From the NCBI GenBank assembly GCA_041738395.1, contig JBGSPW010000064.1, positions 1 to 64,000 on the forward strand: 64,000 nucleotides of DNA. Reading direction: 5' to 3'. A program made the position numbers and the translations under genes. The notes below the pieces were generated by a model, which worked only from the letters and a program-made list of their open reading frames with translations, did not search any database and had not been told where the DNA came from. Positions 41,788 to 57,773 of this stretch are shown one piece after another (within the stretch, counting starts at the first letter, position 1; each line of letters begins with the position of its first letter). The stretch is from Thermoflexales bacterium. Its GTDB lineage: Bacteria; Chloroflexota; Anaerolineae; Fen-1058.

Positions 41788-41799
41788 CGATGCCTCCTG

Positions 41800-41872
41800 A
41801 ATTCGGAATGTGGAATGCGGAATACGGAATGCCCCATTCCGAGTTCCAAATTCTGCATTCCGAATTAATCTA
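41800..41872. repeat. Palindromic element built from GGAATG/CATTCC heptamer-like units in the metV-metF spacer.
   Basis: gaattcggaatgtggaatgcggaatacggaatgccccattccgag...cattccgaatt. Confidence 0.8.
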
Positions 41873-42556
41873 TCATTCTTCTTCCGCTGCCAGTCGCAGA
41901 TCAGGCCGAACAATTTTACGCGGGCCGCCGTCACGTGACGTGCGCCAATTCTTGGGCGGCTGGATCTCCAACAGCCGATCAAGCTTGCCCATGTGATCCA
42001 GCCGATCGTAGATGAGCTGCCACGCGCAGGGAATCTCGTCGTTGATCTCGCAGTGCCCGTCTTCCGATCCGCCGCACGGGCCATTGAGCAGCGACTTCGA
42101 GCAGCGCGCGATCGGACAGATGCCGCCCGTCAAACCGAGGATGCAATCGCCGCAGGCCGCGCAGCGCTCCGTCCACACGCCCTGCTCCACCGGCAGGCCG
42201 AGGAACTTGGTGTTGAGGCCGGGCACGATCCAGGCATCGGGAAAATGCTCGGCCAGCGCCTGCACGCCGATGCCGCAGCCCAGCGACAGCACCACGTCGA
42301 CGACGCCCACTTGCTCGGCAATCTCGTCGAGGTATTCCCATTCGCACTGGCGCTGTACGGTCACATCGGTCACGTCCTTGGCGCCGCCGTCGAGTTTGGT
42401 CGCCATGCGCAATGACGCCGCGACAATCGCGGCTTCGCGCGCGCCGCCCGCAAAGCAGACAGTCACACAGGTGCCACAGCCCGCGACCAGCACCTTCTGC
42501 GCGTCGCCGATCAACGTCTTGATTTCTGCTAAGGGTTTCTGTTCGGCTACGATCAT
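41873..42556 (-). CDS. metV: MetV-like protein (MTHFR C-terminal-domain, Cys-rich zinc-binding), the small subunit partner of MetF.
   Basis: Cys clusters CGTCVTVC, CAACGDCILGLTGGICPIARCSKSLLNGPCGG and CEINDEIPC. GGAGAG RBS before the ATG at 42556. Confidence 0.7.
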   Translation of the reverse strand: MIVAEQKPLAEIKTLIGDAQKVLVAGCGTCVTVCFAGGAREAAIVAASLRMATKLDGGAKDVTDVTVQRQCEWEYLDEIAEQVGVVDVVLSLGCGIGVQALAEHFPDAWIVPGLNTKFLGLPVEQGVWTERCAACGDCILGLTGGICPIARCSKSLLNGPCGGSEDGHCEINDEIPCAWQLIYDRLDHMGKLDRLLEIQPPKNWRTSRDGGPRKIVRPDLRLAAEEE

Positions 42557-42630
42557 GGCTCTCTCCATTTCTGAATGTTGATTGCGGATTTCTGATTGCC
42601 GATTGGTCTTCAATCAACAATCAGCATTCA

Positions 42631-43065
42631 TCAATCAGCAATTCGCAGAGGATTTGCTCCCAACGCCTCAATCTTTTCTGTCATTTCCGTTGTCGCCGTC
42701 ACAAACTGATTGGCCATCGCCGACGACAGATTGAACATAGCGACTCGCTCCGGTTCAAGTCCAATCTGCCTGAGCAAGTCCTTCACGTACGCCACTCGGC
42801 GTTTGGCGTTAGCATTACCTTCCAGGTAATGACAGTCGCCGGGCAGTCAACCCGCCACCATGATGCCGTCCGCGCCGTCTTCTATCGCACGGAGTACGGT
42901 CAGCACATCCATCCGGCCTGTGCACGGTATCTGCACGATCTTGATCGCGGGCGGGTATTGCATCCGCAACCCGCCGGCTAGATCGGCGGCCGCGTAGGCG
43001 CAGTGCTCGCAGCAATAGGCGATGATGTTGAGTTGGTTAGCACGTACAGATGCAACGTCGTTCAT
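42631..43065 (-). CDS. mvhD: MvhD-family [2Fe-2S] protein with an in-frame TGA (42847-42849) at the conserved Cys position. Putative selenoprotein.
   Basis: ...PCTGRMDVLTVLRAIEDGADGIMVAG-[TGA]-LPGDCHYLEGNANAKRR... aligns with MvhD consensus GADGVLVAGChxGDCHY. A hairpin (cattaccttccaggtaatg) lies 15 nt downstream of the TGA, at plus 42814-42832. The open frame continues to a TGA stop at 42631. Confidence 0.7.
42814..42832 (-). promoter_or_regulatory. Putative bacterial SECIS hairpin downstream of the mvhD copy-1 UGA.
   Basis: Perfect 7-bp stem CAUUACC/GGUAAUG with a 5-nt loop, starting 15 nt 3' of the UGA. Confidence 0.55.
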
Positions 43066-43155: not shown

Positions 43156-43932
43156 TCATCTTGAATTGAACAAAGCCATTTCGATATCACATGGCCGAAA
43201 CTTGGACTCGATATTCTCCCCAGCAGCATCAACGTCATTGAAAGTAAGACGCGCGTTGTTTAGCGCTGCTGCCTCTGCCTGCAAAAAGGGAACATATTCC
43301 GTGTAGTACTTATTGATGTTCACGCTTAGATCGCTGATATAGCCATCTTCCGTTCGGAGACTGAGCGTAGTAATACCATTTTTCTGTGTGAAATCATTGA
43401 CGACGTGCTTATCCATGATGCCATAATCATTCGGATACAAGAAACGAAGAAATGCTGTTGCAGTAGGGATTCTCACACCACCAATCCGGAACTTTTTTAG
43501 ACTTGACTCTCTGTATGCGTCAAGCAATTGCACATGTGCATCTTGTGCCCATTTTGCGCGCACATTCTCGACACTGCGTGATGTTCTGGATTTCTGCGAG
43601 GCCATTTTCCAATGCACAATTGCGCAGGTCACGCTCTTTAGGTTGCCAAGACGATCGCCTGTCCATTGACCACTCTCGTTAGCGCGACTACAGTCTTCAA
43701 AGACTGATCGGCTTATTACTTCAAACTTCCGCAAATTGACCCCACGCGGATAGCTCTGAGGAATGGCGGCCGGAAATATACCCGCGAATGTCCCAACATA
43801 CGGCAAGTCGTCAGTTTGAATGACTGTAAATTGCACTTCGCAGTCTCGGTAGTTATAGGCTTGTCTTTGCGCGACGTAACTGTTCAGAGGGATAAGGGTC
43901 ATAGGTATACTCCATCTACATACCCAAGCCAA
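43156..43932 (-). CDS. Hypothetical protein encoded by an AT-rich (about 45% GC) insert between hdrL1 and mvhD. Possible defense or restriction-related protein.
   Basis: GC content drops sharply relative to the 62% flanks. 258 aa with no confident family. The only motif noted is YPNDYGIMDKHVV. Confidence 0.45.
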   Translation of the reverse strand: MAWVCRWSIPMTLIPLNSYVAQRQAYNYRDCEVQFTVIQTDDLPYVGTFAGIFPAAIPQSYPRGVNLRKFEVISRSVFEDCSRANESGQWTGDRLGNLKSVTCAIVHWKMASQKSRTSRSVENVRAKWAQDAHVQLLDAYRESSLKKFRIGGVRIPTATAFLRFLYPNDYGIMDKHVVNDFTQKNGITTLSLRTEDGYISDLSVNINKYYTEYVPFLQAEAAALNNARLTFNDVDAAGENIESKFRPCDIEMALFNSR

Positions 43933-43936
43933 TCTC

Positions 43937-46900
43937 TTATCTGGTAGCTACAGTTTCTTTCACGGGCATGAATCGGCCCGATGGCTCCAACAACGCCTGC
44001 ACCTTCATCACCATCTGCGCATCCGTGTAGTGCATCAACTGAATCGCTTGCGCGGGACATTCGGCCACGCACGAGCCGCAACCCTGGCAGATCGCCGCTT
44101 CGATGTAGGCCGCACCCATAATGCTGCCCACGCCCGTCAAGTTCGCTTTGATCTTCGGCACGCCGAACGGGCAGATGCGCACGCACGTCAAGCAGCCGGT
44201 GCACTTCGCGTCATCCACTACTGCGACACGCCCACCCGCGACTAAAGACTCACGACTCAACACGCGCGCGGCGCGTGCGGCGGCGGCCTGCGCTTGAATC
44301 ATCGTCTCATCCAGCAGCTTCGGATAATGCGCCATACCCGCCATGAACACGCCATCGGATGCAAAATCGACCGGGCGCAGTTTGACGTGCGCTTCGAGGA
44401 AGAAGCCGTCGGCGTCGAGCGCGACTTTGAACAATTTCGCCACCTCGTGCGCATCGTCGCGTGGCACGACGGGCATGGACAGGACGACGAGATCGGGCTG
44501 CAGGGTGATGGTGCGCTGCAAGATGGAATCCCATGCTTGAACGACGATTGGGGAACTCGGAATTTGGAATTCGGAATTCGGATTGTTGATAATCACTTCC
44601 GGTTTATGATTGTCATCGTAGTGGACAAACAACACGCCACGTTCACGCGCGGTGGTATATATCCGTTCTTTGAAGCCATACGTCTGAATGTCTTTGTAGA
44701 GAATGACCACCTGCGCTGCGGGATTGAGTTCTTTGAATTGGATCGCGTTCTTGAGTGCGACGGTGCAGCAAATGCGGCTGCAGTATTTTTCCGCCGGGCC
44801 GACGCATTGGATCATGACGACTGAATGCGGAATGCGGAATGCGGAATGCGGAATGGAAAGCAACGACTCGAATTGCTGTTGAGTGATGATGTTCGGATGA
44901 GTGCCGAATCCATAATCCGGGCCGCGATATTCCTGTGCGCCTGTTGCTAGAATCGTGACGCCGTGCTGTATTTCTTGCATCTTGCATCCTACATCTTGCA
45001 TCTTGCATCCTGCATCTTGCTTCCCGCCTCTTGCATCCTGCGAAGCGTCCCCGTGGGATTGTATCTTGCTGATAAAATTGCCCATGAAGCCCGTCGTCGC
45101 TGCGACCTGGCTGTCGAGATAAACCGTGATGGAAGAGTTGTGCTCAACTTGATCAATCAGTTGCTTCAAGACGATTTGCGGATCTTGGGTCCCCTCTTCC
45201 ATCCCCCTCGCACGCGGGAGGGAAACCAGGACCCGCCGCAGATTGCCGCCGAGTTCATGCGCCTGCTCGACGAGATGAACGGGGAAGCCTTGATCGGCCA
45301 GCGACACAGCCGCGGTCATGCCGGCCGCGCCCCCGCCGACGATCAGGGCAGCGCGCTTCACCGGCACATCGATCAGGTGCTGCGGTTCAAGCAGCGCTGC
45401 GCGCGCCACCGCCATACGCACCAGGTCTTCAGCCTTCGCAGTGGCAACGTCCCAATCATGCGAATGAACCCACGAGCACTGATTGCGGATGTTCGCCATC
45501 TCGAACAGATAGGGATTCAAGCCGGCGTTGCGCAGGCAATCCTGAAACAGCGGCTGATGCGTCAAGGGAGTGCAGCTGGCCACCACCACGCGATTGAGAT
45601 GCTGCTCTTTGATCTGTTCGACGATGTGCTTGATGCTGTCTTGCGAGCACGCATACAAATTTGACTCGGCGTGAACCACGCCCGGCAGCGTCTTCGCATG
45701 GGCGGCAACCTGGGGCACATCGAGGAAGCCTGCGATATTCGAGCCGCAGTGGCACACAAACACGCCGATGCGCGGCTCTTCTTCGCGCACATCTCGCTCC
45801 GCTGGAAATTCCGGGCGCGTGGTCAACGCGAAGCGCGCCGTGCCGAGGCGTGTGGCAGCGGCGGCGGCGGCTCCGCTCGCTTCCACGACCGATTCAGGAA
45901 TATCCTTCGGTTCGCGGAACGGCCCGACGGCGTAGATGCCCGGTCGGCTAGTTTCCAACGGATTGAACTGCACCGTGTGACAGAAACCATATTCGTCGAG
46001 TTCGATCCCCAGGCGTTTGCCCAACGCGCGCACTGATTCGGAAATCTTCATACCGACGGATAACACGACCAGATCAAATTGTTCTTCGACAAGATCGAGT
46101 CCGGCGTCATTGCGAGGAGCGCTTCCTGAGCGGAGCAGAGCGTAGTCGAAGGACAGCGACGAAGCAATCTCCGGCTGTTCGGGACTGAGATTGCTTCGCA
46201 TCCTTCGACTACGCGGCGAACAGATGCCGCTCCACTCAGGACGCTCGCAATGACGGGCATCGGACTGATACCGAACGATCAGATTGTGAGTCTGTGGATT
46301 TTCATGCAGCTCGCTGATGCGACAGCGCGTGTAGTGAATACCGTACCGATCGCGCGCCCGTTCGAAGTAAGACCAGTAGCCCTTGCTGAACGCGCGCATG
46401 TCCATCATGAAGACCTGCACGTCCAGATCAGGTTGATGCTCTTTGGCGATCACTGCTTCTTTGGTCGCATACATGCAGCACACCGCCGAGCAGTAATCGT
46501 GCGTTTGATCGCGCGAGCCGACACATTGCAGGAAGGCAATCCGCTTTGGCGCTGCGCCATCCGATGGACGCCGTACCTGTCCCAGCGTCGGACCGGACGC
46601 CGACAACAACCGCTCGAATTGCAGCGCCGTGACCACGTTCGGATAACGACCGAAGCCATATTCGCGCGACAATGCCGCTTGATACACCTGATAGCCTGGA
46701 GCAAGGATGACAGCGCCGACGTCGATCTTTTCCTCGCGCGCGACCATGTTGTGATCGATCGCATCAACGCCGCAGGCATACACACACGCCAGGCACTCTG
46801 AGCAGATACCGCACTGCAGGCAGCGCTGCGCTTCGGCGCGGGCCTGCTGCTCGGTCAGCCCCAGCACCACCTCGCGGAAGCTGGTCACGCGTTCGGCCAT

Positions 46901-48724
46901 CGGTAGTAAGGCCGGTTGCGCCTTCGGCTGCAAGCGAATCTCTCCGCGCTGCACACGCTGCGTGATCTCTTCGCGCGTGAACTTCGCCACGGGCAGCGCC
47001 GGACGCGCCGGTTGATCGAGCGCCTCATGCTGCAAGTAACGCTGAATCGAAACCGCCACGCGATGCCCCAGCGCCACCGCCTCGATAATGTAGCTGGCTC
47101 CGGTCTTGCGGCCACCAACCACGAAGAGGCCGGGAATCTTGCTAGCCAAGGTCTTGTGATCGACGGCGAGATCGTCGAAGGCCGGATCGAGGAAGTTCAA
47201 ATCCGAGAATTGCCCCACCGTGACGATCACCGTATCCAGTTCCAGCGTGAACTCGGTGCCGGCCTCGATGGTCGGCCGGCGGCGGCCATGCGCATCCGTC
47301 GTCAGGCCACTGCCCGTCTGCGCCAGTTCCACGCCGGCCACCTTTCCGTTCTTCGCTAGAATGCGCGTGACCGTCGTATGTTCATGCAAATGAATGCCCT
47401 CGCTCTCGATGGCCGCCATCTCCCATTCATACGCCGGGATTTCGCCGCGGGGCCGATCGAGCACCAGGTAGACTTCAGCCGCGCCCAAACGTCGCGCGAC
47501 AGCTGCCGCATCCAACGCCGTGATGCCGCCGCCGATCACCGTTACGCGATTACCGATCACGATCGGTTCGCCGAGATTGATCTTGCGCAGGAAGGTGGCG
47601 GCCGAAATCACACCTGCGGCGTCTTCACCCTCAAGCCCGATCGCTGGATCACGCGACGAGATCCCCGTCGCCAGGCAGACGGCGTTGTAGCCCTGCTTCA
47701 ACAGTTGCGCCGGGTCCTTGATCGGCGAGTTGGTCTTGAGCACCACACCCAACGCCAGGATGTCGTCGATGTCCTGCTGCAGCACGCCCTTGGGCAGGCG
47801 ATGCGCGGGAATGCCGACCCGCATCATGCCACCGGCCACCGGCAGCGCTTCGTAGACGGTGACGCCGTAACCTTGCTTTACCAGATCATGCGCCGCCGTC
47901 AGACCGGCCGGGCCGGCCCCGATCACGGCCACCCATTCGGGACGCGTACGCGCGATCGGGGTGACCGGTTCACGCCCATAGGCCAGCGCATAATCCATCA
48001 CGAAGCGCTTGAGCGACATGATGCCTACCGCTTCATCGGCCAAGGCGCGCGTGCAATGTCCCTCGCAGGGATGATGACATGTGCGGCCACACACGCTGGG
48101 GAATGGATTGTCTTCTTTGATCGTGCGGAAGGCCTCGCGATAACGGCCCTGTGCGATCAACGCGATGTAACCTTGCGCGCGCTGTCCAGCCGGACAAGCA
48201 TCACGACACGGCGCGACACCGCGTTTCTCAATCGCATAAGCCGACGGCACCGCCTGAGCATACAGCCGATAAGCTGCCCGGCGATCCTTCAGCCCTTCTT
48301 CGTAGAGATCGGGCAACACGATCGGGCAAACCTTGGCGCAATCGCCGCAGCCTACACATTTGGTCACATCGATGTAACGCGGCCTGCGGCGCACGGATAC
48401 CGTGAAGTTTCCGGCCTGCCCTTCGACGCCCAGCACGTCGGTATCGGTGAGAATGTCGATGTTGAGATGACGTCCGGTTTCGACCAGGCGCGGGCTGATA
48501 TTGCACATCGCGCAATCGTTGGTGGGGAACGTCTTGTCCAACTGTGCCATGTGCCCGCCGATGGCCGACTTCTCTTCGACGAGATAGACCTTGAAGCCCT
48601 GATCGGCGAGATCGAGCGAAGCCTGCATGCCGGCAATCCCACCGCCGACGACCATCACCGCGCCGACTGGTGTCGATTGGCTTCGAGGTATTTGATTCAC
48701 GTCGATTGGACTTGTGATGTCCAT
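43937..48724 (-). CDS. hdrL: HdrL-type giant flavoprotein (1595 aa). It comprises an HdrA-like N-terminal FAD/Fe-S module, a GltD-like NAD(P)H-binding domain, a full HdrA core, a second FAD-binding module and a C-terminal di-cluster ferredoxin.
   Basis: VVGGGIAGMQASLDLA...TFPTNDCAMC. CVGCGDCAKVCP. GltD-like CPAGQRAQGYIAL...AVIGAGPAGLTAAHDL. CLQCGICSECLACVYAC...FLQCVGSRD...CSAVCCMYATKEA. C-terminal CTGCLTCVRICP...CQGCGSCVAECP. Confidence 0.8.
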   Translation of the reverse strand: MDITSPIDVNQIPRSQSTPVGAVMVVGGGIAGMQASLDLADQGFKVYLVEEKSAIGGHMAQLDKTFPTNDCAMCNISPRLVETGRHLNIDILTDTDVLGVEGQAGNFTVSVRRRPRYIDVTKCVGCGDCAKVCPIVLPDLYEEGLKDRRAAYRLYAQAVPSAYAIEKRGVAPCRDACPAGQRAQGYIALIAQGRYREAFRTIKEDNPFPSVCGRTCHHPCEGHCTRALADEAVGIMSLKRFVMDYALAYGREPVTPIARTRPEWVAVIGAGPAGLTAAHDLVKQGYGVTVYEALPVAGGMMRVGIPAHRLPKGVLQQDIDDILALGVVLKTNSPIKDPAQLLKQGYNAVCLATGISSRDPAIGLEGEDAAGVISAATFLRKINLGEPIVIGNRVTVIGGGITALDAAAVARRLGAAEVYLVLDRPRGEIPAYEWEMAAIESEGIHLHEHTTVTRILAKNGKVAGVELAQTGSGLTTDAHGRRRPTIEAGTEFTLELDTVIVTVGQFSDLNFLDPAFDDLAVDHKTLASKIPGLFVVGGRKTGASYIIEAVALGHRVAVSIQRYLQHEALDQPARPALPVAKFTREEITQRVQRGEIRLQPKAQPALLPMAERVTSFREVVLGLTEQQARAEAQRCLQCGICSECLACVYACGVDAIDHNMVAREEKIDVGAVILAPGYQVYQAALSREYGFGRYPNVVTALQFERLLSASGPTLGQVRRPSDGAAPKRIAFLQCVGSRDQTHDYCSAVCCMYATKEAVIAKEHQPDLDVQVFMMDMRAFSKGYWSYFERARDRYGIHYTRCRISELHENPQTHNLIVRYQSDARHCERPEWSGICSPRSRRMRSNLSPEQPEIASSLSFDYALLRSGSAPRNDAGLDLVEEQFDLVVLSVGMKISESVRALGKRLGIELDEYGFCHTVQFNPLETSRPGIYAVGPFREPKDIPESVVEASGAAAAAATRLGTARFALTTRPEFPAERDVREEEPRIGVFVCHCGSNIAGFLDVPQVAAHAKTLPGVVHAESNLYACSQDSIKHIVEQIKEQHLNRVVVASCTPLTHQPLFQDCLRNAGLNPYLFEMANIRNQCSWVHSHDWDVATAKAEDLVRMAVARAALLEPQHLIDVPVKRAALIVGGGAAGMTAAVSLADQGFPVHLVEQAHELGGNLRRVLVSLPRARGMEEGTQDPQIVLKQLIDQVEHNSSITVYLDSQVAATTGFMGNFISKIQSHGDASQDARGGKQDAGCKMQDVGCKMQEIQHGVTILATGAQEYRGPDYGFGTHPNIITQQQFESLLSIPHSAFRIPHSVVMIQCVGPAEKYCSRICCTVALKNAIQFKELNPAAQVVILYKDIQTYGFKERIYTTARERGVLFVHYDDNHKPEVIINNPNSEFQIPSSPIVVQAWDSILQRTITLQPDLVVLSMPVVPRDDAHEVAKLFKVALDADGFFLEAHVKLRPVDFASDGVFMAGMAHYPKLLDETMIQAQAAAARAARVLSRESLVAGGRVAVVDDAKCTGCLTCVRICPFGVPKIKANLTGVGSIMGAAYIEAAICQGCGSCVAECPAQAIQLMHYTDAQMVMKVQALLEPSGRFMPVKETVATR
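44976..45040. repeat. About nine copies of the CATCYTG heptanucleotide tandem repeat inside hdrL1 coding sequence. Three units (21 nt) encode one heptapeptide unit (KQDAGCKMQDVGCKMQ).
   Basis: Plus strand catcttgcatcctacatcttgcatcttgcatcctgcatcttgcttcccgcctcttgcatcctg. Further CGGAATG/GGAATTC tracts lie at 44563-44588 and 44824-44856. Confidence 0.9.
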
Positions 48725-48786
48725 GTTACTTCTTCGCTTCGTGCACCGACATTCATTTATGAATTGTTAGGTGCATTGACAACGAT

Positions 48787-49683
48787 TTAACTGCACCGAT
48801 CAGCACGAAAAGATAACGGTGATAGGTTAAACGTATCGACAAAGTCATCCGTAGTGTACTGAGTAAGTAACGGATGCTGAGAGATAGCTGATCTAACCAC
48901 GCAGAGAACAAAGTGCTGGTCAATCTGCGCTTGTTTCACTTCACGTGCAGTAATAATGAATGACTCTATGTCGCCTCTGACGCCTTTGACCTCGACATGC
49001 TTGAATTCAGATCCCTTTTCACAAAGAAGATCAAACCCGCGTTTATCAACTTCTACTGATTGCACTTTCCAGCCGTGTGACTCATAATGCTTCTTGACAA
49101 TAGTGATTGCCGCTTGTTCAACTCTCCGATTGCTCTCTGGTGAGCCAAATCCAGCTCCGACCTTGGTTGCCTGCCCGTTATTCTCGACAAGGTCTACTTT
49201 TGCCTGAATAGGCATGCTTTTAGCTGGCAATGGACGATCCAAAAAATGCGCCCAGTCTCGTTCAAGCTGCTCAGCAATATCTTCTGGAATAGTCCTACCA
49301 GATGCCCGTGGCTCCCAATTCATCCTTGAGTAGATGCCGCTGTTTAGCCGTTCTCTTGGAAATATTCCTTTGTGAGGGTCAAGAATGGTATCAAAGTCCA
49401 CATCTATGTATAAAGCGGATTTACCCTTCTTGCGCGCTGCCGGATTCCAATGCGGTCCCGGACTGACTTTTTCGCTTGTCACTACCCCGGAGGCCATAAT
49501 ACCGCGAGGAGGCTCTTTACCTAGCTTGATGAGAAACACGCGATCGCCTTGAACAATCTTCTTCGTCACACCGCAACTCCAAGAGTCGGAAAGATAGCCA
49601 TATTTTTCAATCTCCTGAATATCTTTCTGAAGACGCTTCCACGGCGTTAGTACTTTATTCCATGTCAGTAGGTAAGTCGCCAT
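48787..49683 (-). CDS. PUA/EVE-like N-terminal domain fused to a DUF3883 (NOV_C, restriction-endonuclease-like) domain. Candidate modification-dependent restriction or defense protein. The gene is AT-rich (about 45% GC).
   Basis: N-terminus LTWNKVLTPW...IVQGDRVFLIKLGKEPPRGIMASGVVTSE is EVE/PUA-like. C-terminus ...KRGFDLLCEKGSEFKHVEVKGVRGD...FIITAREVKQA matches the DUF3883 GyDi...iEVK...E pattern. Confidence 0.5.
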   Translation of the reverse strand: MATYLLTWNKVLTPWKRLQKDIQEIEKYGYLSDSWSCGVTKKIVQGDRVFLIKLGKEPPRGIMASGVVTSEKVSPGPHWNPAARKKGKSALYIDVDFDTILDPHKGIFPRERLNSGIYSRMNWEPRASGRTIPEDIAEQLERDWAHFLDRPLPAKSMPIQAKVDLVENNGQATKVGAGFGSPESNRRVEQAAITIVKKHYESHGWKVQSVEVDKRGFDLLCEKGSEFKHVEVKGVRGDIESFIITAREVKQAQIDQHFVLCVVRSAISQHPLLTQYTTDDFVDTFNLSPLSFRADRCS

Positions 49684-49909
49684 ATCTTTGCTCCACTTTG
49701 AGGTATTACGCCCGACTACTTCTTCACTTACGCCTCATCCATCGCCATCCATTCGCGCCGCCATCAATGTGTCATGCTGAGCGCATTTTGCGAAGCATCT
49801 CTCTCACGGCAGGCCACGTTTGCCAGTCAGAGGTAGAGATTCCTCGCTTCGCTCGGAATGACACACCACATGACGTTTATTCCGCACTCCGCACTCCCCA
49901 TTCCGCATT

Positions 49910-51103
49910 CTACGAATCCGTTGCCATCCATTCGCGCCGCCGCATTTCCGGTGTCTGCAAATTGCGCGGAATGATGACCGTGAAGCGTGTGCCTGAACCA
50001 CTTTCATCCGTCGTCACCTTGACGACAATCTGCCCGCTATGCGCATCCATGATTTTTTTGGCGATGGATAAGCCGAGGCCGGTGCCCGGTGTCTCGCCGA
50101 CATTGTCGGCGCGGAAGAAATCTTCAAAGATGTGCGGCAGATCATCGGACGGGATACCGGGGCCTTCGTCGTCGACCTCGAAGGTCAATGAGTCCGGTTC
50201 GTACCGCGCGCGAAAGGTCACCGTACTATCGGGCGGCGCGAACTTGATGGCGTTGTTCAGCAGATTGGTCAAGACCTGCCGCATCCTCCGGCGCGCCCCC
50301 ACGATCGGCTCAAACTTGGGCGGCGGCTCCACCTTGATCCGCACGCCTTTTTCGGCCGCGGCCAAGCGCACATCTTCCAAGGATTCGGTGCCCGCCTCGC
50401 CGGGATCGAACCATTCGAAATCGGCCTGAATCTGCTCCGGGCGCATCCGCGCCAGATCGACCACGTCGCCAATCAGGCCACGCAATTCGACCACGCGCAG
50501 AATGCTGCGCCGCACCATGCGCTGCTGCTTTTCATTCAACTCGCCCGCATAACCGCCGAGGATGGTCTGCAAGTAATTCTCAACGGCGGCCAACGGCCCG
50601 CGCAGTTCGTGCGAGACGATGGACAGAAAATACGTGAGCGTGTCGGTGGCATGCCGATACCGATCGCTGATCAGCGCGGCCTGCCGGTACATCACTTTGA
50701 AGCCCGCTTCGGGATGCGCCCACAGATAAGCGCGCAGCGGCGCACCATCGACCGCGATCACGCGCGCCGGTTCGAGGCACACCGCCGAAGTCGTGTAGGT
50801 ATACGGCGGGGTCAGCGTCGAGAAGCCCGCCATCTCGCCCGGCTCGACGTAGGCGATCGTCGCGTTGCGCGCCGTCGAATGCCGCCCAATCTGGATTTTC
50901 TTTTCCAGCGCCAGTTTGCCCCGTTCGACGATATACATGATCTCGGCCGGTTCGCCTTCCAGCAGCACGGTATCGCCGTCGCGATAAGTCTCTTCGCGGC
51001 AAAACTCCGCAATGGCCGCCAGATCCGTCTCGGAGAGTTCACCGAAAATCTCCGAGCGGCGCAGCCGTTCAGCGGCAATCGACAACGGTGTGACCTTAAG
51101 CAT
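49910..51103 (-). CDS. Sensor histidine kinase with an N-terminal cNMP-binding domain.
   Basis: cNMP-binding-like stretch (IFGELSETDLAAIAEFCREETYRDGDTVLLEGEPAEIMYIVERGKLAL). HisKA H-box (SIVSHELRGPLAA). HATPase motifs (NLLNNAIKF, GTGLGLSIAKKI). Confidence 0.85.
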   Translation of the reverse strand: MLKVTPLSIAAERLRRSEIFGELSETDLAAIAEFCREETYRDGDTVLLEGEPAEIMYIVERGKLALEKKIQIGRHSTARNATIAYVEPGEMAGFSTLTPPYTYTTSAVCLEPARVIAVDGAPLRAYLWAHPEAGFKVMYRQAALISDRYRHATDTLTYFLSIVSHELRGPLAAVENYLQTILGGYAGELNEKQQRMVRRSILRVVELRGLIGDVVDLARMRPEQIQADFEWFDPGEAGTESLEDVRLAAAEKGVRIKVEPPPKFEPIVGARRRMRQVLTNLLNNAIKFAPPDSTVTFRARYEPDSLTFEVDDEGPGIPSDDLPHIFEDFFRADNVGETPGTGLGLSIAKKIMDAHSGQIVVKVTTDESGSGTRFTVIIPRNLQTPEMRRREWMATDS

Positions 51104-51491
51104 GCACGCTCAACAATCTCTCGACGCGACGGAGCAAATCATCCGGTCGGGCCGGTTTCTGGACGTAGTCCTGCACATCCATCGCCATGCCGGTTTCCAA
51201 TTCGTAGCGCCGGCGGCTGGCATCTTCGACGACGGTCGTGAGCACCAGGATCGGCACGGTGGCATAGCGCGGCTCGCTGCGCATCTCGCGGATCACGCCC
51301 CAGCCATCCATACGCGGCATCAACAAATCCAGGATTAAGAGATCCGGCACTTCTTTGGCAACGAGCGCCATGCACTTCTTGCCATCGGGGGCGGTGGCCA
51401 GCCGATAGGGCTGCGATTCCAGGATAGTCGTGATGCCTTCGAGAATGTCGGGGTCATCGTCGACGATCAGAATATACGGTTGATGTTCCAT
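51096..51491 (-). CDS. Single-domain response regulator (REC).
   Basis: ILIVDDDPDILEGI...DLLILDLLMPRMDGWGV. GGAAGG RBS before the ATG at 51491. Confidence 0.85.
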   Translation of the reverse strand: MEHQPYILIVDDDPDILEGITTILESQPYRLATAPDGKKCMALVAKEVPDLLILDLLMPRMDGWGVIREMRSEPRYATVPILVLTTVVEDASRRRYELETGMAMDVQDYVQKPARPDDLLRRVERLLSVHA

Positions 51492-51542
51492 GACTACCCT
51501 TCCTATTCCTGCGCGTACCGTCATTGCGCCGAAGCCATAACG

Positions 51543-51986
51543 TTACTCACTTGCCTTTTCCTGCGCGCCGTTGAGCCTGAGCGGATTGGGACCCAGGCGT
51601 TCAATCTCCGCGGTCAACTCGGCGGCCGACCACGCGAACTGGCCGCCCATCGCCGATGACAGATTGATCATCTGCGCGCGGCGGCCTTCCAGACCGATCT
51701 CTTCCAGCAGCTTTTGCGCGTATTCAATTCGCCGGCGGGCGTTGAGATTACCTTCCAGGTAATGGCAGTCGCCTTCCAGTCAACCCGCCACCAGCACGCC
51801 ATCGGCGCCATCCTCAAAAGCGCGCAGCACATAGAGCACGTCGAGCTTGCCGGTGCACGGCAATTCGATCACCTTAATCGAGGTGGGATACTCCAGTCGC
51901 AGCGCACCGGCCAGATCGGCCGCGGCATACGCGCAGTAACGGCAGCAGAACGCGACAATTTCGGGATTGAAGTGGTCGGACGTCAT
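51543..51986 (-). CDS. mvhD: MvhD-family protein, second copy, with an in-frame TGA (51780-51782) at the conserved Cys position. Putative selenoprotein. Its ATG overlaps the hdrL2 stop codon (ATGA).
   Basis: ...ELPCTGKLDVLYVLRAFEDGADGVLVAG-[TGA]-LEGDCHYLEGNLNARRR... A hairpin (attaccttccaggtaat) lies at plus 51747-51763. Confidence 0.7.
51747..51763 (-). promoter_or_regulatory. Putative SECIS hairpin downstream of the mvhD copy-2 UGA.
   Basis: Same AUUACC-UGGAA-GGUAAU hairpin as in copy 1. It is conserved despite divergence in the flanking codons. Confidence 0.55.
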
Positions 51987-54900
51987 CGTGATACCTCGAT
52001 CTGTTCAATCGGAATGAAGCTGCTCACGTGAGAGGTTTCGTTAAACAACGCATCAATCTTGATCATCGTTTGCGCATCGGTGTAGTGCATCAATTGGATC
52101 GCGTGGGCCGGACATTCGGATGCGCACGAGCCGCAGCCCTGACAAATGGCCGGCTCGATATACGCCGCCCCGATAATACCCCCCGCCCCTGTAAAGTTAC
52201 TTTGCACCTTCGGCACGTCGTAAGGGCAGATGCGCACGCAAGTGAGGCAGCCCGTGCACTTGAGCGGATCGACCACCGCCACGCGCGCATTGCTCAACAT
52301 CGACTCTTGCGACAAGAGGCGCGCGGCGCGTGAAGCCGCGGCTTGCGCCTGCGCGATCGTCTCATCCAGAAATTTCGGATAGTGCGCCATGCCAGCCATG
52401 AATACACCATCGGCCGCAAAATCGATCGGGCGCAGTTTGACGTGCACTTCCAGGAAGAACCCGTCCATGTCCATGGACACTTTGAGCAACGTGCCCAGAC
52501 TACGTGCTCCCGGTGATGGGACGATGGGCGTGCTCAGTACGAGCAGATCGGGATGCAGTTCCAGATCGCGGTTAAGGACCGGTTCGTGAACCCGAATGAT
52601 GATTTTGGAATTCGGAATTCGGAATTCGGATTCCCGATCACTGATCACCGATCCCTGATCTCTGATCTCCACCTCCGGCTTGTGATCGAAATCGAAATGG
52701 ATGAAGCGCACGCCAGCTCGTCGCGCTTCCGTGTACAGCCGTTCCTTGAAGCCATACGTGCGGATGTCGCGATAGATGATCGTGACGTCGGCCGCCGGAT
52801 TCAGCTCTTTGATCTTGAGCGCATTCTTAAGTGCCGTGGTGCAGCACAGGCGGCTGCAGAATTTCTCGGCCGGGCCAACACACTGGATCATGACGATTGA
52901 TTTTTGATTTTGGATTTCTGATTTTGGATTGGCCAGAAACGACTCGAACTCCAACTGGGTCATGATGCCCGGATGCTGACCGTATTTGTATTCTTTGCCT
53001 TTATATTCAACACCGCCCGTAGCGACGATCGTTACGCCGTGGCCTACTTCCTGTATCCTGCCTCCTGCATCCCGCAACTTGCTGGTGAAGTTGCCCTTAA
53101 AGCCACCCAGGCCGATCAGTTCCGTGTTCAGATGCACATCGATCAGCGGATGCTGCTCGACCTTCGTTACGATCTTTTCCAGATAGTTCTGTGGCGTCAG
53201 TGCGGTCCCGTCTCCGTGCAGCGGCACAAAATAGCGCAGCTGGCGCAGATTGCCCCCCAGCGCCTCGGCACGTTCGATCAGATGGACGGGGAAGCCCTGA
53301 TCGGCCAGGGTGAGCGCCGCCGTCATGCCGGCCGCCCCTCCACCGATGATCAACGCCGCCTTGTTGATCGGCACCAGCGAGGTCTTCAACGGTTCGAGCC
53401 GCAGCGCGCGCGCCGCGGCCATGCGCACCAACGCTTCAGCCTTCACCGTTGCGCCGTCTCGATCGCCCGCGTGAACCCACGAACATTGATTGCGGATGTT
53501 TGCCATCTCGAACAAATAAGGATTGAGACCGGCCTGGCGAATGGCATCCTGAAAGAGCGGTTCATGCGTAAGTGGCGTGCACGACGCCACCACTACCCGA
53601 TTGAGCCCCAGCACCTTCACTTGATCGATGATGTGGGCGATCGTATCTTGTGAGCACGTGTATAAGTTGTCTTCCGCATGGACCACGCCGGGCAGCGATC
53701 GCGCATACTCGGCCACCGCGGGCACATCCAGATAGCCGCCGATGTTAGTGCCACAGTGACAGACGAACACGCCAACGCGCGACGTTTCATTAGCCACATC
53801 TCGTTCCGCCGGATACTCTTGAACGCGCGTCAGCGTATGCCGGGCCGGATACAGGATCTGCGCCGCCGCGGCAGCCGCGCCACTCGCTTCGATCACGGAT
53901 TCTGGAATATCCTTCGGTTCGCGGAATGGCCCGGCCACGTAGATGCCCGCGCGGCTGGTCTGCAACGGATCGAACAACGTGGTGTGGCAGAAGCCGTAGG
54001 AATCGAGCTCGATCCCCAGGTTGCGTCCCAGCCGCTTGACGGATTCGGATATCTCCATGCCCACCGACAGCACTACCAGATCGAACTCTTCCTCGATTAG
54101 CTGACTCGATCCTTCATACGGCGCGGCATAACGCACGCGAAGATTCCGCGTGACTGGATCTTCTTTCACATCGCTGAGACGACAGCGAGTGTACTTCACG
54201 CCGTACTTCTTCTCGGCGCGCTGATAGTATTCTTCATAGCCCTTGCTGAAAGCGCGCGTATCCATGAAGAAGACCTGGCACGTGACCTGACCTGCGCCGC
54301 TGCCAGAACGGTCCTCGGCCAACGCATGCTCCATCGTCATGATCGCTTCCTTGGCCGCGTACATGCAGCACACCGACGAGCAATAATCATGGCTTTGATC
54401 GCGGCTGCCCACACATTGCAAGAAGGCAATGCGCTTTGGCTTGGCGCCATCGGCGGGACGCTGGACGTGACCGAAGGTTGGGCCGCTGGCCGATAACATC
54501 CGTTCATATTGCAGCGCAGTCACCACATTGGGATAACGGCCCAATCCATACTCTTCCGACAGATGTGCTTGGTAGACTTCGTAACCCGGCGCGAGGATGA
54601 CGGCCCCGACGTTGATCTTTTCTTCGCGCGCGACCATGTTGTGATCGATCGCATTCGTACCGCAGGCGAACGTGCAGCTCATGCACTCCGAGCAAATCCC
54701 GCAGGCCAGGCAACGCGCGGCTTCTCTTTGCGCCGATTGATCATCGTAGCCCCCTTCGACCTCTACGAAGTTGTCGATGCGCTGCTCGACCGGCAGTTCG
54801 GGCAGCGGCACTCGCGTCTGACGTTTGATCTCGCCCCGCGCGATACGGGCTTCGATCTCTGCGTGTGTCAGCTTCACCACCGGTAATTCGGGATGATGCA

Positions 54901-56674
54901 ACGGTTCCAGATGTTCGCCCTGCAAATAGCGCAGAATCGATCGGGCCACGGTATGGCCGCTGTTTACCGCCTCGATCACAAACGCGGTGCCCGAGACACT
55001 ATCACCCGCCGCGAACACCCCTTCGCGCGTCGCCGCCAGCGTGTTGGGATTCACCGCAATCAACTTGCGGCCCGTCAAGCCCACGCCCGCATCGTCGGGG
55101 ATAAACGCCAGACCCGCACGCTGGCCTACCGAGAAGATCACGGTATCGCATGCGATGACGTGCGTGGAGTCGGGCACTTTCTCCACGTTGAGACGCCCGG
55201 TCTCGTCGAAGCTAAACGAAGCCACGCGCAGGCACTCGACGCCGCGCACGTGGCCGTGTTCGTCGCTGAGGATGCGTTCAAAGGTGCGGCCCTCATGCCA
55301 GACGATGCCTTCTGCTTGCGCGGCCTGCACTTCCCACGCATGCGCAGGCATCTTGTCGCCGCTCTCGAGACACGCCATCTCGACGTGACGACCCAACCGC
55401 ACGGCGCTGCGGGCGCAATCGATGGCGACGTTGCCGCCGCCGAGCACTAGCACTCGTTTACCCAATCGTGCATCGTACCCGTCGCCTTCTGCCTCCTGCA
55501 TCGTGCTTCCTGCCTCTTGCATCCTGCTTCCTGCATACTTTCCCAGTCGCACATCGCGCAAGAAGTGAGTGTTGATGATCACGCCCTCCAGGTTCGCACC
55601 CGGAATCGGCAGGCGAATACCTTCGTGCGCGCCGACGGCGATCAGCACCGCCTCGAAGCCCGCGTCGAAAATGTCGTCGAGGTTGTCGATGCGATGATTC
55701 AAGCGCAGATCGACGCCAAGGTCGACGATGTCCTGCACTTCGCGCTCGATGATGTTCGTCGGCAAGCGATATTCCGGAACGCCGAGACGCAGCATGCCGC
55801 CGGCCACCGGCATCGCTTCAAACACGGTGACGCCATAGCCCTCGCGCACGAGGTCTTGCGCCGCCGTCAAGCCGCACGGCCCTGCGCCGATAATGGCCAC
55901 GCGCTGATCGAACCGTCGGGGAAGAGGCTCGATCGGTGGGCGCGGCTCCGCGTAGACTTTATCGGTCACAAAGCGCTTGAGGGCGCGGATGTTGATCGGT
56001 TCGTCCACCAGTCCGCGGTTGCAGGCGTCTTCGCAGCGATGATTGCAGATGCGGCCGCAGATGCCGGGAAAGGGATTGTCCATCTTGATGACGCGCAGCG
56101 CATCCTGCCAGCGGCCTTCGCGAATCAACGCGATGTAGCCCTGCGCGCGCTGACTGGCGGGACAGGCATCCCGGCACGGCGCGATGCCGCGCTTCTCGAT
56201 GGCGTACGCATTGGGCACGGCTTGCGGATAGAGTTTGTAGATCGCGTGCCGTGGCGCGAGTGTTTCGTTGAAGGTATCGGGGACGATCACCGGACAGACC
56301 TTGGCGCAGTCGCCACATCCCACGCATTTGCTCAGATCGATGTAACGCGGCTGATGCTGCACACGCGCGACAAAGTCTCCGGCCTGTCCCGCCACATCCC
56401 AGACTTCGGTGTTGGTCATGATCGTGATGTTGGGATGGCCGCCTGTCTCGATGAGACGCGGCGAGATGGTGCACATCGCGCAGTCGTTGGTGGGGAAGGT
56501 CTTGTCGAGCTGCGCCATGTGCCCGCCGATGGCGGACTTGGTTTCGACCAGATACACCTTGAAACCCTGCTCGGCCAGATCGAGCGAGGCCTGCATCCCG
56601 GCAATGCCGCCGCCGACGACCATGACCGCGCCGATGGGTTGTTTATTCGTAGAGGGATCGGTTATCTGAGTCAT
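51983..56674 (-). CDS. hdrL: HdrL-type giant flavoprotein, paralog 2 (1563 aa).
   Basis: Collinear with hdrL1: VVGGGIAGMQASLDLAEQGFKVYLVE, CVGCGDCAKVCP, a GltD-like domain, CLACGICSECMSCTFAC, FLQCVGSRD and C-terminal CTGCLTCVRICP/CQGCGSCASECP. Contains heptamer tracts at 52604-52672, 52898-52931, 53046-53073 and 55484-55545. Confidence 0.8.
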   Translation of the reverse strand: MTQITDPSTNKQPIGAVMVVGGGIAGMQASLDLAEQGFKVYLVETKSAIGGHMAQLDKTFPTNDCAMCTISPRLIETGGHPNITIMTNTEVWDVAGQAGDFVARVQHQPRYIDLSKCVGCGDCAKVCPVIVPDTFNETLAPRHAIYKLYPQAVPNAYAIEKRGIAPCRDACPASQRAQGYIALIREGRWQDALRVIKMDNPFPGICGRICNHRCEDACNRGLVDEPINIRALKRFVTDKVYAEPRPPIEPLPRRFDQRVAIIGAGPCGLTAAQDLVREGYGVTVFEAMPVAGGMLRLGVPEYRLPTNIIEREVQDIVDLGVDLRLNHRIDNLDDIFDAGFEAVLIAVGAHEGIRLPIPGANLEGVIINTHFLRDVRLGKYAGSRMQEAGSTMQEAEGDGYDARLGKRVLVLGGGNVAIDCARSAVRLGRHVEMACLESGDKMPAHAWEVQAAQAEGIVWHEGRTFERILSDEHGHVRGVECLRVASFSFDETGRLNVEKVPDSTHVIACDTVIFSVGQRAGLAFIPDDAGVGLTGRKLIAVNPNTLAATREGVFAAGDSVSGTAFVIEAVNSGHTVARSILRYLQGEHLEPLHHPELPVVKLTHAEIEARIARGEIKRQTRVPLPELPVEQRIDNFVEVEGGYDDQSAQREAARCLACGICSECMSCTFACGTNAIDHNMVAREEKINVGAVILAPGYEVYQAHLSEEYGLGRYPNVVTALQYERMLSASGPTFGHVQRPADGAKPKRIAFLQCVGSRDQSHDYCSSVCCMYAAKEAIMTMEHALAEDRSGSGAGQVTCQVFFMDTRAFSKGYEEYYQRAEKKYGVKYTRCRLSDVKEDPVTRNLRVRYAAPYEGSSQLIEEEFDLVVLSVGMEISESVKRLGRNLGIELDSYGFCHTTLFDPLQTSRAGIYVAGPFREPKDIPESVIEASGAAAAAAQILYPARHTLTRVQEYPAERDVANETSRVGVFVCHCGTNIGGYLDVPAVAEYARSLPGVVHAEDNLYTCSQDTIAHIIDQVKVLGLNRVVVASCTPLTHEPLFQDAIRQAGLNPYLFEMANIRNQCSWVHAGDRDGATVKAEALVRMAAARALRLEPLKTSLVPINKAALIIGGGAAGMTAALTLADQGFPVHLIERAEALGGNLRQLRYFVPLHGDGTALTPQNYLEKIVTKVEQHPLIDVHLNTELIGLGGFKGNFTSKLRDAGGRIQEVGHGVTIVATGGVEYKGKEYKYGQHPGIMTQLEFESFLANPKSEIQNQKSIVMIQCVGPAEKFCSRLCCTTALKNALKIKELNPAADVTIIYRDIRTYGFKERLYTEARRAGVRFIHFDFDHKPEVEIRDQGSVISDRESEFRIPNSKIIIRVHEPVLNRDLELHPDLLVLSTPIVPSPGARSLGTLLKVSMDMDGFFLEVHVKLRPIDFAADGVFMAGMAHYPKFLDETIAQAQAAASRAARLLSQESMLSNARVAVVDPLKCTGCLTCVRICPYDVPKVQSNFTGAGGIIGAAYIEPAICQGCGSCASECPAHAIQLMHYTDAQTMIKIDALFNETSHVSSFIPIEQIEVSR

Positions 56675-57153: not shown

Positions 57154-57654
57154 CTATGTGGTGCGCCTTCCGCGAAATCCTTCCTCTTCATCCGTCTCTT
57201 GTTCCGCAGTCCGCATTCCGAATTCCCCGTTTCCTTTCAGCGGATTCGGCCCCAACTCGCGGATGCGCTCCGTCATCGTTTGAGCCGCGTTCGCAAAAAC
57301 CTGCGCCTGACTGCCCGACATGAAGAACATCTCGAGTCGCTCGCCGCCGATGCCGATCTCGTCCAGAATTTTCTTGGCCCGGCGCAAGCGCGCGCGCCCG
57401 CGTTCATTGCCGCGCACATGATGACAGTTGCCGATCGGGCAGGCCACCACATACACGCCATCCGCGCCCTGCTCAAAGGCTTCCAGCAAATAGCGCACAT
57501 CGGTCTTGCCCGTGCACGGCATCCGCACGAACTTCACGTTGGCCGGATACTGAACCTCCAGCGTGCCCGCCGTGTCCGCGGCCATGTATCCGCAGTAGAT
57601 GCAGTAGAAGGCGGTGATTTCAGGCTCGAATGAATGTGTTATTTGAGATGTCAT
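57154..57654 (-). CDS. mvhD: MvhD-family protein, third copy, of the Cys type with no TGA.
   Basis: CTGKTDVRYLLEAFEQGADGVYVVACPIGNCHHVRGNERG. GAGG RBS before the ATG at 57654. Confidence 0.8.
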   Translation of the reverse strand: MTSQITHSFEPEITAFYCIYCGYMAADTAGTLEVQYPANVKFVRMPCTGKTDVRYLLEAFEQGADGVYVVACPIGNCHHVRGNERGRARLRRAKKILDEIGIGGERLEMFFMSGSQAQVFANAAQTMTERIRELGPNPLKGNGEFGMRTAEQETDEEEGFRGRRTT

Positions 57655-57773
57655 ATTCCTCACGGTAACGTGCTGTGTGGTTCGTTCATAACGAGTAATG
57701 AGTAACGAGTAATAGGACCATTGAGCCGGATCACACCGTTGCGATACGACCTTTACTCATTACTTGTTACTCG

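Follow-up and report, generated by a model that had tools for sequence, protein, structure and literature searches.

Whether tandem heptanucleotide arrays inside a gene form a switch, or are repeats that the encoded protein tolerates, is the question raised by hdrL1 and hdrL2, two long paralogous genes within the first 64,000 nucleotides of contig JBGSPW010000064.1 from a Thermoflexales bacterium (Chloroflexota, Anaerolineae; assembly GCA_041738395.1). This whole stretch was analysed and is called the window below. As seven is not a multiple of three, the change of an array by one unit would shift the reading frame, and a preliminary description of the window had regarded the arrays as classic slipped-strand contingency loci. 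That view is not supported by the present analysis: the tracts comprise few and mostly imperfect units, internal loops of a core enzyme are where they are found, and the short-read assemblies of relatives provide no OFF alleles. The best account, to which we assign a probability of about 60%, is slippage-prone selfish repeat DNA that resembles the short tandemly repeated repetitive (STRR) arrays of cyanobacteria and is filtered by reading frame and loop tolerance.

According to this account, the arrays occupy two settings, namely the spacers of the presumably co-transcribed hdrL-mvhD-metV-metF genes, where inverted arrays fold as hairpins next to ribosome-binding sites, and five insertion-tolerant surface loops of HdrL. 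Arrays would change in length via slipped-strand mispairing of 7-nt units, and within a gene only changes of three units (21 nt, seven residues) would survive selection, such that the loops grow or shrink by seven residues and leave the enzyme intact. The same loops accept other small selfish repeats, namely a 150-nt palindromic element and a 14-nt motif, and the sites common to both paralogs would hold arrays of old date in permissive loops, with concerted evolution replacing their units.

Heptamer arrays in hdrL1 and hdrL2

The two genes were defined by open reading frames (ORFs) and Pfam matches, in addition to a paralog alignment for hdrL2:

43937-48724, minus strand: hdrL1, 1595 residues; HdrA-like, GltD/NfnB-like and second HdrA-like modules
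51983-56674, minus strand: hdrL2, paralog of hdrL1, 1563 residues

The two proteins share 60% identity and the same architecture, in which a GltD/NfnB-like NAD(P)-binding module is flanked by two HdrA-like FAD/Fe-S modules, both of which match HdrA (5ODC); the Pfam families are Pyr_redox_2, Fer4_20, FAD and Fer4. The order of the modules and the neighbouring mvhD, metV and metF genes agree with the name hdrL, which is taken from the preliminary description, and the biochemical role is predicted from sequence. The product of hdrL1 is identical to P0001, and the nearest homologs of the HdrL proteins all come from metagenome-assembled genomes (MAGs) of Anaerolineae/Chloroflexota.

Tandem arrays were called with Tandem Repeats Finder (TRF), and the chance level was taken from 30 second-order Markov shuffles. 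The window contains 20 arrays of period 7, compared to a mean of 1.7 in the shuffles; period 7 alone is far above chance, with the other periods near expectation. A stricter period detector (mismatch penalty -3), which found three arrays, or four at a looser threshold, was replaced by TRF. The tracts listed in the preliminary description are all present, with coordinates right to within a few bases. Some unit families recur, GAATGCG being found at four loci and GGAATTC and CAATCAG at two each. Eight arrays lie within the two hdrL genes:

44973-45041, minus strand: hdrL1 site A, (GCAAGAT/GCAGGAT) x9.9, 77% matches; peptide SQDARGGKQDAGCKMQDVGCKMQE
44823-44855, minus strand: hdrL1 site B, (CATTCCG) x4.7, 100% matches; peptide SIPHSAFRIPHS
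44552-44582, minus strand: hdrL1 site C, (GAATTCC-type) x4.4, 87% matches; peptide NPNSEFQIPSS
55484-55534, minus strand: hdrL2 only, (GCAGGAA-type) x7.3, 21-nt super-period with 92% matches; peptide AGSRMQEAGSTMQEAEG
53049-53076, minus strand: hdrL2 site A, (TGCAGGA) x4.0; peptide LRDAGGRIQE
52897-52930, minus strand: hdrL2 site B, (AAATCMA) x4.9; peptide NPKSEIQNQKSI
52636-52667, minus strand: hdrL2 site C, (GATCAGG-type) x4.6
52607-52630, minus strand: hdrL2 site C, (CGGAATT) x3.4, 100% matches

The two arrays at hdrL2 site C (52607-52667) encode the peptides EIRDQGSVISDR and SEFRIPNS. The hdrL arrays range from 3.4 to 9.9 units with 77-100% matches, and the longest perfect run is 4.7 units (33 nt). 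Several coding arrays fit a super-period of 14 or 21 nt better than 7 nt, a drift that would make in-frame slippage easier.

Alignment of the paralogs places arrays at three homologous sites:

Site A: residues 1228-1251 of HdrL1 and 1200-1209 of HdrL2
Site B: residues 1290-1301 of HdrL1 and 1249-1260 of HdrL2
Site C: residues 1381-1391 of HdrL1 and 1336-1356 of HdrL2

The earlier claim of homologous positions thus holds for sites A-C, but not for the pair of peptides that had been quoted to illustrate it, KQDAGCKMQDVGCKMQ from site A of HdrL1 and RMQEAGSTMQEAEG from residues 381-397 of HdrL2. The two are not homologous, since RMQEAGSTMQEAEG lies within a 21-residue insertion that is specific to HdrL2 and precedes the GGG nucleotide-binding strand of the GltD-like domain. 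One further Anaerolineae locus, L042 (L numbers denote the loci and contigs compared with the window), has an array at the same place as the hdrL2-only array.

Moreover, the sites are loops inside domains rather than linkers between conserved domains, as had been thought. In the AlphaFold2 model of the C-terminal module of HdrL1 (mean predicted local distance difference test score, pLDDT, of 78.3), all three sites are located between secondary-structure elements, where the model confidence is locally low. Site A forms the tip loop of a hairpin between strands E118-125 and E148-155, with a pLDDT below 50, and coincides in the alignment with the inserted ferredoxin domain of HdrA (5ODC). Site B is a loop between a helix and the strand VVMIQCVGP, whereas site C is a β-hairpin loop, corresponding to a six-residue insertion at a turn relative to HdrA (5ODC).

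Arrays of at least three units in 74 hdrL genes were placed on the numbering of HdrL1. Nearly all of them fall into five hot spots, at residues ~385, ~821-883, ~1220-1251, ~1290-1301 and ~1378-1395, the exceptions being one N-terminal array (L026) and a weak 3.1-copy array at residue ~1093 (L027). The stretch 821-876 falls between residues 474 and 480 of HdrA in the 5ODC alignment, and five lineages carry arrays in the hot spot at 821-883, where the window has the palindromic element. The units at a given site differ by lineage, including AAATCCA, GGGGATC x25 (L007), CAATCTC x15.7 (L032) and AGTGATC (L003). Unit pairs within one mismatch make up 17.7% within a locus, 6.8% between loci and 1.9% among random heptamers. 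The same unit is sometimes found at the same site across distant lineages, for instance GCAAGAT, which the window, L001 and L053 have in common at site A, and the CATTCCG array at site B of hdrL1 is also present at this site in L186 (P0009). In addition, some array-poor orthologs retain the 11-residue loop of site B with a weak 7-nt periodicity. The recurrent units and this residual periodicity suggest that at least part of the pattern is old, with units turning over.

Period-7 arrays are dense in about a dozen of 64 Anaerolineae hdrL loci and absent from most of them; most hdrL orthologs have no arrays and short loops. The densities are 4-10 arrays per 10 kb in L001-L003, L027, L032, L042, L053, L058, L060 and L063, and ~3.6 per 10 kb in L046. 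Some Anaerolineae genomes are marked by heptamer arrays, and others have none.

Length change and reading frame

Changes in array length can be followed in L001, a syntenic contig of ~90% nucleotide identity that has both paralogs and arrays at the same sites. It was compared in turn with L002, the two coming from different samples (ERZ27256924 in the European Nucleotide Archive and a fen MAG from NCBI, PMCF01000148, respectively) and being 99.78% identical over 19.7 kb; this was the only informative pair among the near-identical contig pairs screened for polymorphism. Site A has 9.9 units in the window, 12.9 in L001 and 15.4 in L002. The sole real indel between L001 and L002 is 21 nt long and lies in this longest array, and 12 of their 13 arrays are identical. 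A 21-nt difference between assemblies so closely alike points to slipped-strand length change, from which we infer slipped-strand mispairing as the mechanism. Between the window and L001, hdrL1 differs by indels of 7, 7 and 21 residues at sites A-C and by a net 42 residues at positions 822-885, and hdrL2 shows no indel, all five of its arrays having kept their length at ~10% nucleotide divergence.

All five indels at repeat sites in these two comparisons are multiples of 21 nt. This bears out the earlier statement that heptamer tracts keep the frame only in steps of three units, and answers its question of whether repeat expansion preserves the frame: each length change seen does so. For contrast, the window and L001 were compared in two spacers for indels of 7 or 14 nt between genes, which yielded no clean case. 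Every short-read hdrL gene with arrays reads through them in one frame, and no out-of-frame hdrL allele was found in any short-read assembly checked. In the nanopore MAG L046 (10524-22570), both hdrL copies are broken into several frames. One of the four frame breaks (21960-21971) falls at the site C heptamer array (21944-21971); the other three are away from arrays and thus look like sequencing errors. Sequencing errors probably explain the breaks in L046, although a real frameshift allele could be present among them. Assembly artefacts are rejected as the source of the arrays themselves, which are shorter than a read and occupy matching positions in assemblies made independently from different samples (window, L001, L002, L186 and L187).

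The window also encodes a complete MutS (domains I-V; 26316-28937, minus strand), and the repeat load therefore has no explanation in an evident lack of mismatch repair. MutS recognises 7-nt loops poorly.

These data allow the contingency reading to be weighed, in which slippage of one or two heptamers would switch hdrL1 or hdrL2 on and off and thereby make the population heterogeneous in this redox complex. It is consistent with the translation of 7-nt units within intact ORFs, with the array that is length-polymorphic between near-identical strains, and with the one L046 break at an array; a paralog could moreover buffer the loss of one hdrL. There is also a precedent for an intragenic heptamer switch in neuO of Escherichia coli K1 (CUS-3 prophage), which carries an AAGACTC tract of 3-53 perfect units at its 5' end and is out of frame in 65.6% of 64 genomes (PMC13001214). 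Full-length NeuO is made only if the number of units is divisible by three, three units adding one heptad of seven residues, and longer repeats are reported to increase its catalytic activity (PMC13001214). The likeness to hdrL is limited to an intragenic heptamer tract and the arithmetic of seven against three: the neuO tract is perfect, 5' and part of a surface-modifying enzyme, whereas the hdrL arrays comprise 3-10 mostly imperfect units that lie in frame in internal loops of a core-metabolic protein.

Several further points speak against a switch. A long near-perfect tract, as in neuO, is missing from hdrL, and each hdrL, a 4.7-kb gene of core metabolism, has several tracts, in loops that are internal or in its 3' half, instead of a 5' tract in a gene for surface or host-interaction functions. 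The product, whose gene has mvhD, metV and metF as neighbours, is a flavin/iron-sulfur oxidoreductase, and hdrL does not belong to a class under fluctuating selection (surface structures, restriction-modification, host interaction). Out-of-frame alleles, so common in neuO, are lacking among the short-read assemblies of related genomes, all observed indels keep the frame, the hdrL2 arrays are length-invariant, and three of the four L046 breaks are away from arrays. Furthermore, unrelated units at the same loops in distant lineages, together with other small repeats found there, indicate insertion tolerance rather than a switch. Altogether, the contingency reading appears highly improbable.

The NeuO precedent also bears on the idea of adaptive loop tuning, in which steps of seven residues would alter HdrL activity or partner binding in the way that added heptads raise NeuO activity. 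Length does vary in seven-residue steps at defined loops of HdrL; however, the loop sequences are unrelated between lineages, are modelled with low confidence and are short in most orthologs, and the same loops take a 50-residue palindromic element. We consider such tuning hardly credible. Instead, we infer that the coding arrays are neutral or selfish.

Dispersed elements and the spread of arrays

Two other kinds of small repeat accompany the arrays:

46104-46254, minus strand: palindromic element, copy 1, ~150 nt, nested and resembling a miniature inverted-repeat transposable element, GTCATTGCGAGCG...CGCTCCTCGCAATGAC; in frame in hdrL1
49775-49862, minus strand: palindromic element, degenerate copy, GTCATTCCGAGCGAAGCGAGGAATCTCT...GCTCAGCATGAC; fold z -1.1, not significant alone
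40624-40766, no strand assigned: palindromic element, third copy, in the spacer between metF and a CCG-domain (hdrC/B-like) gene
45044-45057, minus strand: 14-nt dispersed motif CCCACGGGGACGCT, peptide SHGDA; adjoins the site A array

The copy in hdrL1 has a predicted RNA fold of -99.4 kcal/mol (z -10) and sits in an insertion of ~56 residues (residues ~821-876) that has no heptamer array. It is absent from the L001 ortholog, and the L001 spacer matching the third copy is ~92 nt shorter; the element, being present or absent at these two sites, is a candidate for mobility. Its terminal motif has 20 matches in hdrL loci, compared to two in the Markov control. The first bases, gtCATTCCGag, contain the heptamer unit CATTCCG, and 17 nt separate the degenerate copy from the array at 49879-49910. 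Site B of L186 and of L187 contains the element in frame as well, located upstream, by 20 nt, of an array of (CATTCCG)4.7 or (ATTCCGA)4.9. Dispersed, 100-150 nt long and located in an intact gene, it resembles in-frame palindromic selfish sequences such as the Rickettsia palindromic elements, which Ogata et al. reportedly described in 2000; the likeness is that of a ~150-nt dispersed palindrome read in frame at a loop of an intact gene.

The motif CCCACGGGGACGCT has four copies in L001, all in hdrL1 sites A-C, a number reached in none of 100 shuffles, and is embedded in register in the arrays at these three sites. It also occurs beside a TAATTGG heptamer array in the unrelated contigs L115 and L185, and has ten matches in 1.95 Mb, six of them from one gene lineage. 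It is similar to the small dispersed repeats inside heptamer arrays that Elhai et al. (2008, cited in PMC3116915) reportedly found in Nostoc. The window elements differ from the Rickettsia and Nostoc ones in sequence family and host, and their mobility is putative.

Such elements could mean that the arrays are actively propagated by templated or transposition-like spread and that the palindromic element and the 14-nt motif use them as landing pads, much as small dispersed repeats reportedly insert into heptamer arrays in Nostoc, in which case the hot spots would reflect a target preference at the DNA level plus protein tolerance. In line with this, an identical unit is found at four loci within 16 kb, the palindromic end equals an array unit and lies 17-20 nt from such an array (49862/49879, and site B of L186 and L187), the motif is in register within arrays at three L001 sites and beside an array in an unrelated contig, and one hot spot takes both arrays and the palindromic element. 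However, mutation and slippage, or gene conversion, could also make the units within a locus alike, and the motif is present in few copies; no transposase or other candidate enzyme is linked to the elements, though no search for target duplications or transposases was made. Active propagation is in our view unlikely. Unlikely, too, is a propagating repeat system in the wider sense, in which the arrays would be more than passive products of slippage, with arrays copied between loci as landing pads for mobile repeats and hdrL-metVF as the preferred target or beneficiary. If true, it would be a Chloroflexota counterpart of the unexplained system of STRR and small dispersed repeats in filamentous cyanobacteria, with an insertion history legible in a conserved enzyme, and hdrL-metVF could gain control at the mRNA level of a highly used operon.

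In favour of repeat DNA that is tolerated where it lands, one of the units is by no means confined to this locus. Metagenome contigs were scanned for exact (CATTCCG)3, and at least 120 contigs (L066-L185), with GC contents from 36% to 75%, contain it, which reveals that (CATTCCG)n/(CGGAATG)n is widespread in environmental DNA. The contigs listed hold 358 period-7 arrays in 684 kb, and none among them encodes hdrL, metF, metV or mvhD. Arrays are also found in frame in other proteins, among them a planctomycete PSCyt1/PSCyt2/PSD1 protein and an amidohydrolase, where they encode the peptides AFRIPHS or RNAECGM (examples: L152, 3746-3776; L082, 503-532). As stop-free arrays fuse ORFs and many seemingly coding arrays may be false, such cases were accepted only with Pfam domains on both sides.

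A unit specific to the operon was considered as well and is not supported, as the (CATTCCG)3 contigs listed lack hdrL and met genes.

Heptamer arrays outside the hdr cluster include AAAACGT-unit arrays (CGTAAAA/GTAAAAC) at gene ends far from it (9541-9570 and 62564-62588), and (CACGCAC) x3.7 at 32351-32376, an intercistronic array at the junction of an aminotransferase gene (stop 32371) and a short-chain dehydrogenase gene. AAAACGT occurs also in the distant relative L027 just downstream of hdrL, as a 14-copy array with an inverted partner (6222-6320 and 6774-6802).

Spacer hairpins, gene cluster and related repeat systems

Outside hdrL1 and hdrL2, arrays accompany the neighbouring genes as follows:

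41799-41866, minus strand: inverted arrays (first CGGAATG-type, next CATTCCG-type) whose hairpin separates the metV stop (41873) from the Shine-Dalgarno (SD) sequence and ATG of metF (41787)
42573-42644, minus strand: inverted arrays ATTGCTG/CAATCAG, forming a hairpin between mvhD-1 and metV
57687-57778, minus strand: inverted arrays GTAACGA/TTACTCG, forming a long hairpin in the spacer between a 1050-residue hdrA-like gene and mvhD-3
57202-57235, minus strand: direct array of CGGAATG-type units, x3.6, within the C-terminal mvhD-3 tail; the FlpD domain ends at residue 138 of 169
49879-49910, minus strand: direct array, GAATGCG-type x4.6, immediately after the stop of a histidine-kinase gene

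The metV-metF hairpin (-37 kcal/mol, z -4.6) ends at the AGGAGG of metF and is kept in L001 (z -3.7). The hairpin upstream of metV (z -3.2) overlaps with the stop of mvhD-1, and ~10 nt separate its end from the metV SD/ATG (42556); the third (-49.7 kcal/mol, z -4.5) overlaps the stop codon of the hdrA-like gene. None of the three spacers has a U run after the hairpin. Four places had been described as palindromic before; the first two indeed consist of inverted arrays with hairpins, but 49879-49910 and 57202-57235 are direct arrays, and the hairpin at 57687-57778 was missing from that list.

Several results weigh against selfish, tolerated repeats as a complete account. Slippage is deduced from assembled alleles, among which minority out-of-frame alleles may go unnoticed. 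The hairpin upstream of metV is lost in L001 (z +1.4). Moreover, 16 of the 20 period-7 arrays (17 of the 23 TRF rows of period 7, 14 or 21), in addition to all three palindromic copies, lie within 17 kb of the hdr-met cluster, and such crowding of arrays and palindromic elements could reflect a cluster-specific role. Enrichment was tested in nine independent heptamer-rich Anaerolineae loci, where hdrL makes up 39% of the ORF sequence. There, 23 arrays fall in hdrL and at most three in other long ORFs (binomial p = 2e-7), although shared ancestry of arrays could inflate the hdrL count and lower the effective sample size. Per kb, hdrL holds 0.44 arrays and the other ORFs hold at most 0.04, compared to 1.17 elsewhere. 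This ~12-fold enrichment of hdrL is not predicted by a purely neutral model in which any tolerant loop serves. The stop-free share of array units is about that of random heptamers and is uninformative.

A cluster-specific role might lie in cis-acting RNA elements, with arrays in spacers and coding sequence controlling the stability, processing or translation of hdrL-mvhD-metVF mRNA; variants of this reading invoke a single-strand-binding protein that reads heptamers, or long-range pairing of CAUUCCG with CGGAAUG arrays. The hairpins directly upstream of the metV and metF SD sequences and in the hdrA-mvhD spacer would suit it, as would the complementary units on the same strand (coding 44823-44855 versus upstream 49879-49910 and 57202-57235), the concentration of arrays and palindromic elements in the cluster, and the enrichment of hdrL over other ORFs. 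Similar proposals have also been made for STRR hairpins and TAACTGA repeats. However, the units at the same sites differ between lineages, a relative ~90% identical has lost the metV-upstream hairpin, most hdrL orthologs have no arrays at all, and at least 120 contexts unrelated to this one contain (CATTCCG)n, with hdrL near none of the matches listed. A search of Rfam (38-62 kb, E<=1) gave no match. We therefore regard cis-acting RNA control by the arrays as improbable, whereas the spacer hairpins, by their position, may still affect mRNA stability, processing or translational coupling.

The cluster itself comprises three mvhD genes, metV, metF, a CCG-domain gene, the further hdrA-like gene upstream of mvhD-3, a two-component pair, hdrL1 and hdrL2, and the hdrL-mvhD-metV-metF synteny is common to the window, L001, L186 and L187. 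Four of its genes are:

40777-41787, minus strand: metF, methylenetetrahydrofolate reductase, 336 residues (Pfam; start set from sequence and the L001 ortholog)
41873-42556, minus strand: metV (DUF5981), 227 residues (Pfam; L001 comparison)
51543-51986, minus strand: mvhD with an in-frame TGA at 51782-51780
~42640-43040, minus strand: mvhD with an in-frame TGA at 42849-42847

The two TGA codons in these mvhD (FlpD) genes fall in the motif VAG*L(E/P)GDCHY and probably encode selenocysteine, as judged from sequence. The L001 ortholog of mvhD-2 (14743-15190) has Cys at this position (VAGCLEGDCHY), and a conserved 7-bp hairpin, CAUUACC-UGGAA-GGUAAUG, lies ~19 nt downstream of the TGA, with an energy only ~2 standard deviations below shuffles. 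Consequently, gene callers yield split FlpD genes or 66-residue fragments in the window, L001, L186 and L187.

The spacers between the histidine-kinase gene and hdrL1 (48787-49683) and between hdrL1 and mvhD-1 (43156-43932) appear as variable cargo slots, whose junctions are flanked by heptamer arrays. The former contains a NOV_C-domain gene in the window and a PIN/antitoxin pair in L187, and the latter a 258-residue ORF without Pfam match in the window and a 342-residue ORF in L186; L001 has neither cargo.

Two repeats of longer period are found elsewhere in the window. An 18-nt unit x12 with a 72-nt super-repeat (4660-4879) encodes GQMGNI-like hexapeptide repeats in a 2594-residue ORF (41-7825), between its SBP_bac_5 and Calx-beta domains, and a 105-nt unit x1.9 with 86% matches (18968-19167) lies upstream of an ORF without Pfam match (19236-20576).

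Among known systems, the STRR sequences of cyanobacteria are similar to the window arrays in having tandem 7-nt units of several families and inverted arrays as hairpins between co-transcribed genes. Over-represented 7-nt arrays with recurring unit families are present within the window, and inverted intergenic arrays form hairpins in three spacers (z -3.2 to -4.6). In the hupS-hupL spacer, inverted STRR arrays form a hairpin proposed to act in transcript stability or translational coupling (PMC2670836), and an STRR array has been placed at a tolerant position inside a functional RNase P RNA gene (Vioque 1997, as cited in PMC2858038). STRR arrays are mostly located between genes; in contrast, many window arrays are translated in frame at recurrent loops of a conserved enzyme, and they differ in unit sequence and in their host, a member of the Anaerolineae. 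With the closest relatives in Anaerolineae/Chloroflexota and not in cyanobacteria, the arrays are STRR-like rather than STRR members in the narrow sense.

Heptamers are also the unit of the TAACTGA direct repeats found in marine Beggiatoaceae as well as in some cyanobacteria and Bacteroidetes (MacGregor 2015, PMC4679880). With 2-6 copies or more, these lie for the most part between genes, in many cases within 5' leaders, and are distributed patchily across phyla; coding sequence can accommodate them only in the stop-free orientation, as in two of 24 mapped Microcystis sets (PMC4679880). One dominant unit prevails there, compared to the many units, inverted hairpin pairs and heavy load in one enzyme gene seen here. 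According to PMC4679880, which summarises the long simple sequence repeats (units of 5-11 nt) studied by Mrazek and co-workers, heptamers are the commonest long-unit class in most prokaryotic genomes, slippage is the proposed cause, and intragenic repeats are expected to persist only if the frame is kept, coding regions being dominated by units in multiples of three. The hdrL genes differ in keeping a 7-nt unit in the coding region by changing it in threes. No paper linking heptamer repeats to Chloroflexi/Anaerolineae was found, which in view of incomplete literature coverage is weak evidence of novelty.

For annotation, the locus teaches that a repeat pattern resembling phase variation need not be a switch. 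To tell a switch from a tolerated repeat, one can ask how perfect the tract is, where in the gene it lies, whether relatives have out-of-frame alleles and whether arrays recur at tolerant loops. Gene callers mis-handle the present region, in which stop-free arrays extend ORFs and probable selenocysteine TGA codons split mvhD genes. The findings extend STRR-type heptanucleotide arrays to the Anaerolineae, and in the metagenome scan the unit CATTCCG turned up in many other environmental bacteria. The repeated frame-preserving uptake of repeats at five loops of a conserved and structurally understood enzyme offers a natural map of insertion-tolerant sites in HdrA-type proteins, and hdrL is a tractable case in which to study the spread of such repeats and their preference for this gene.

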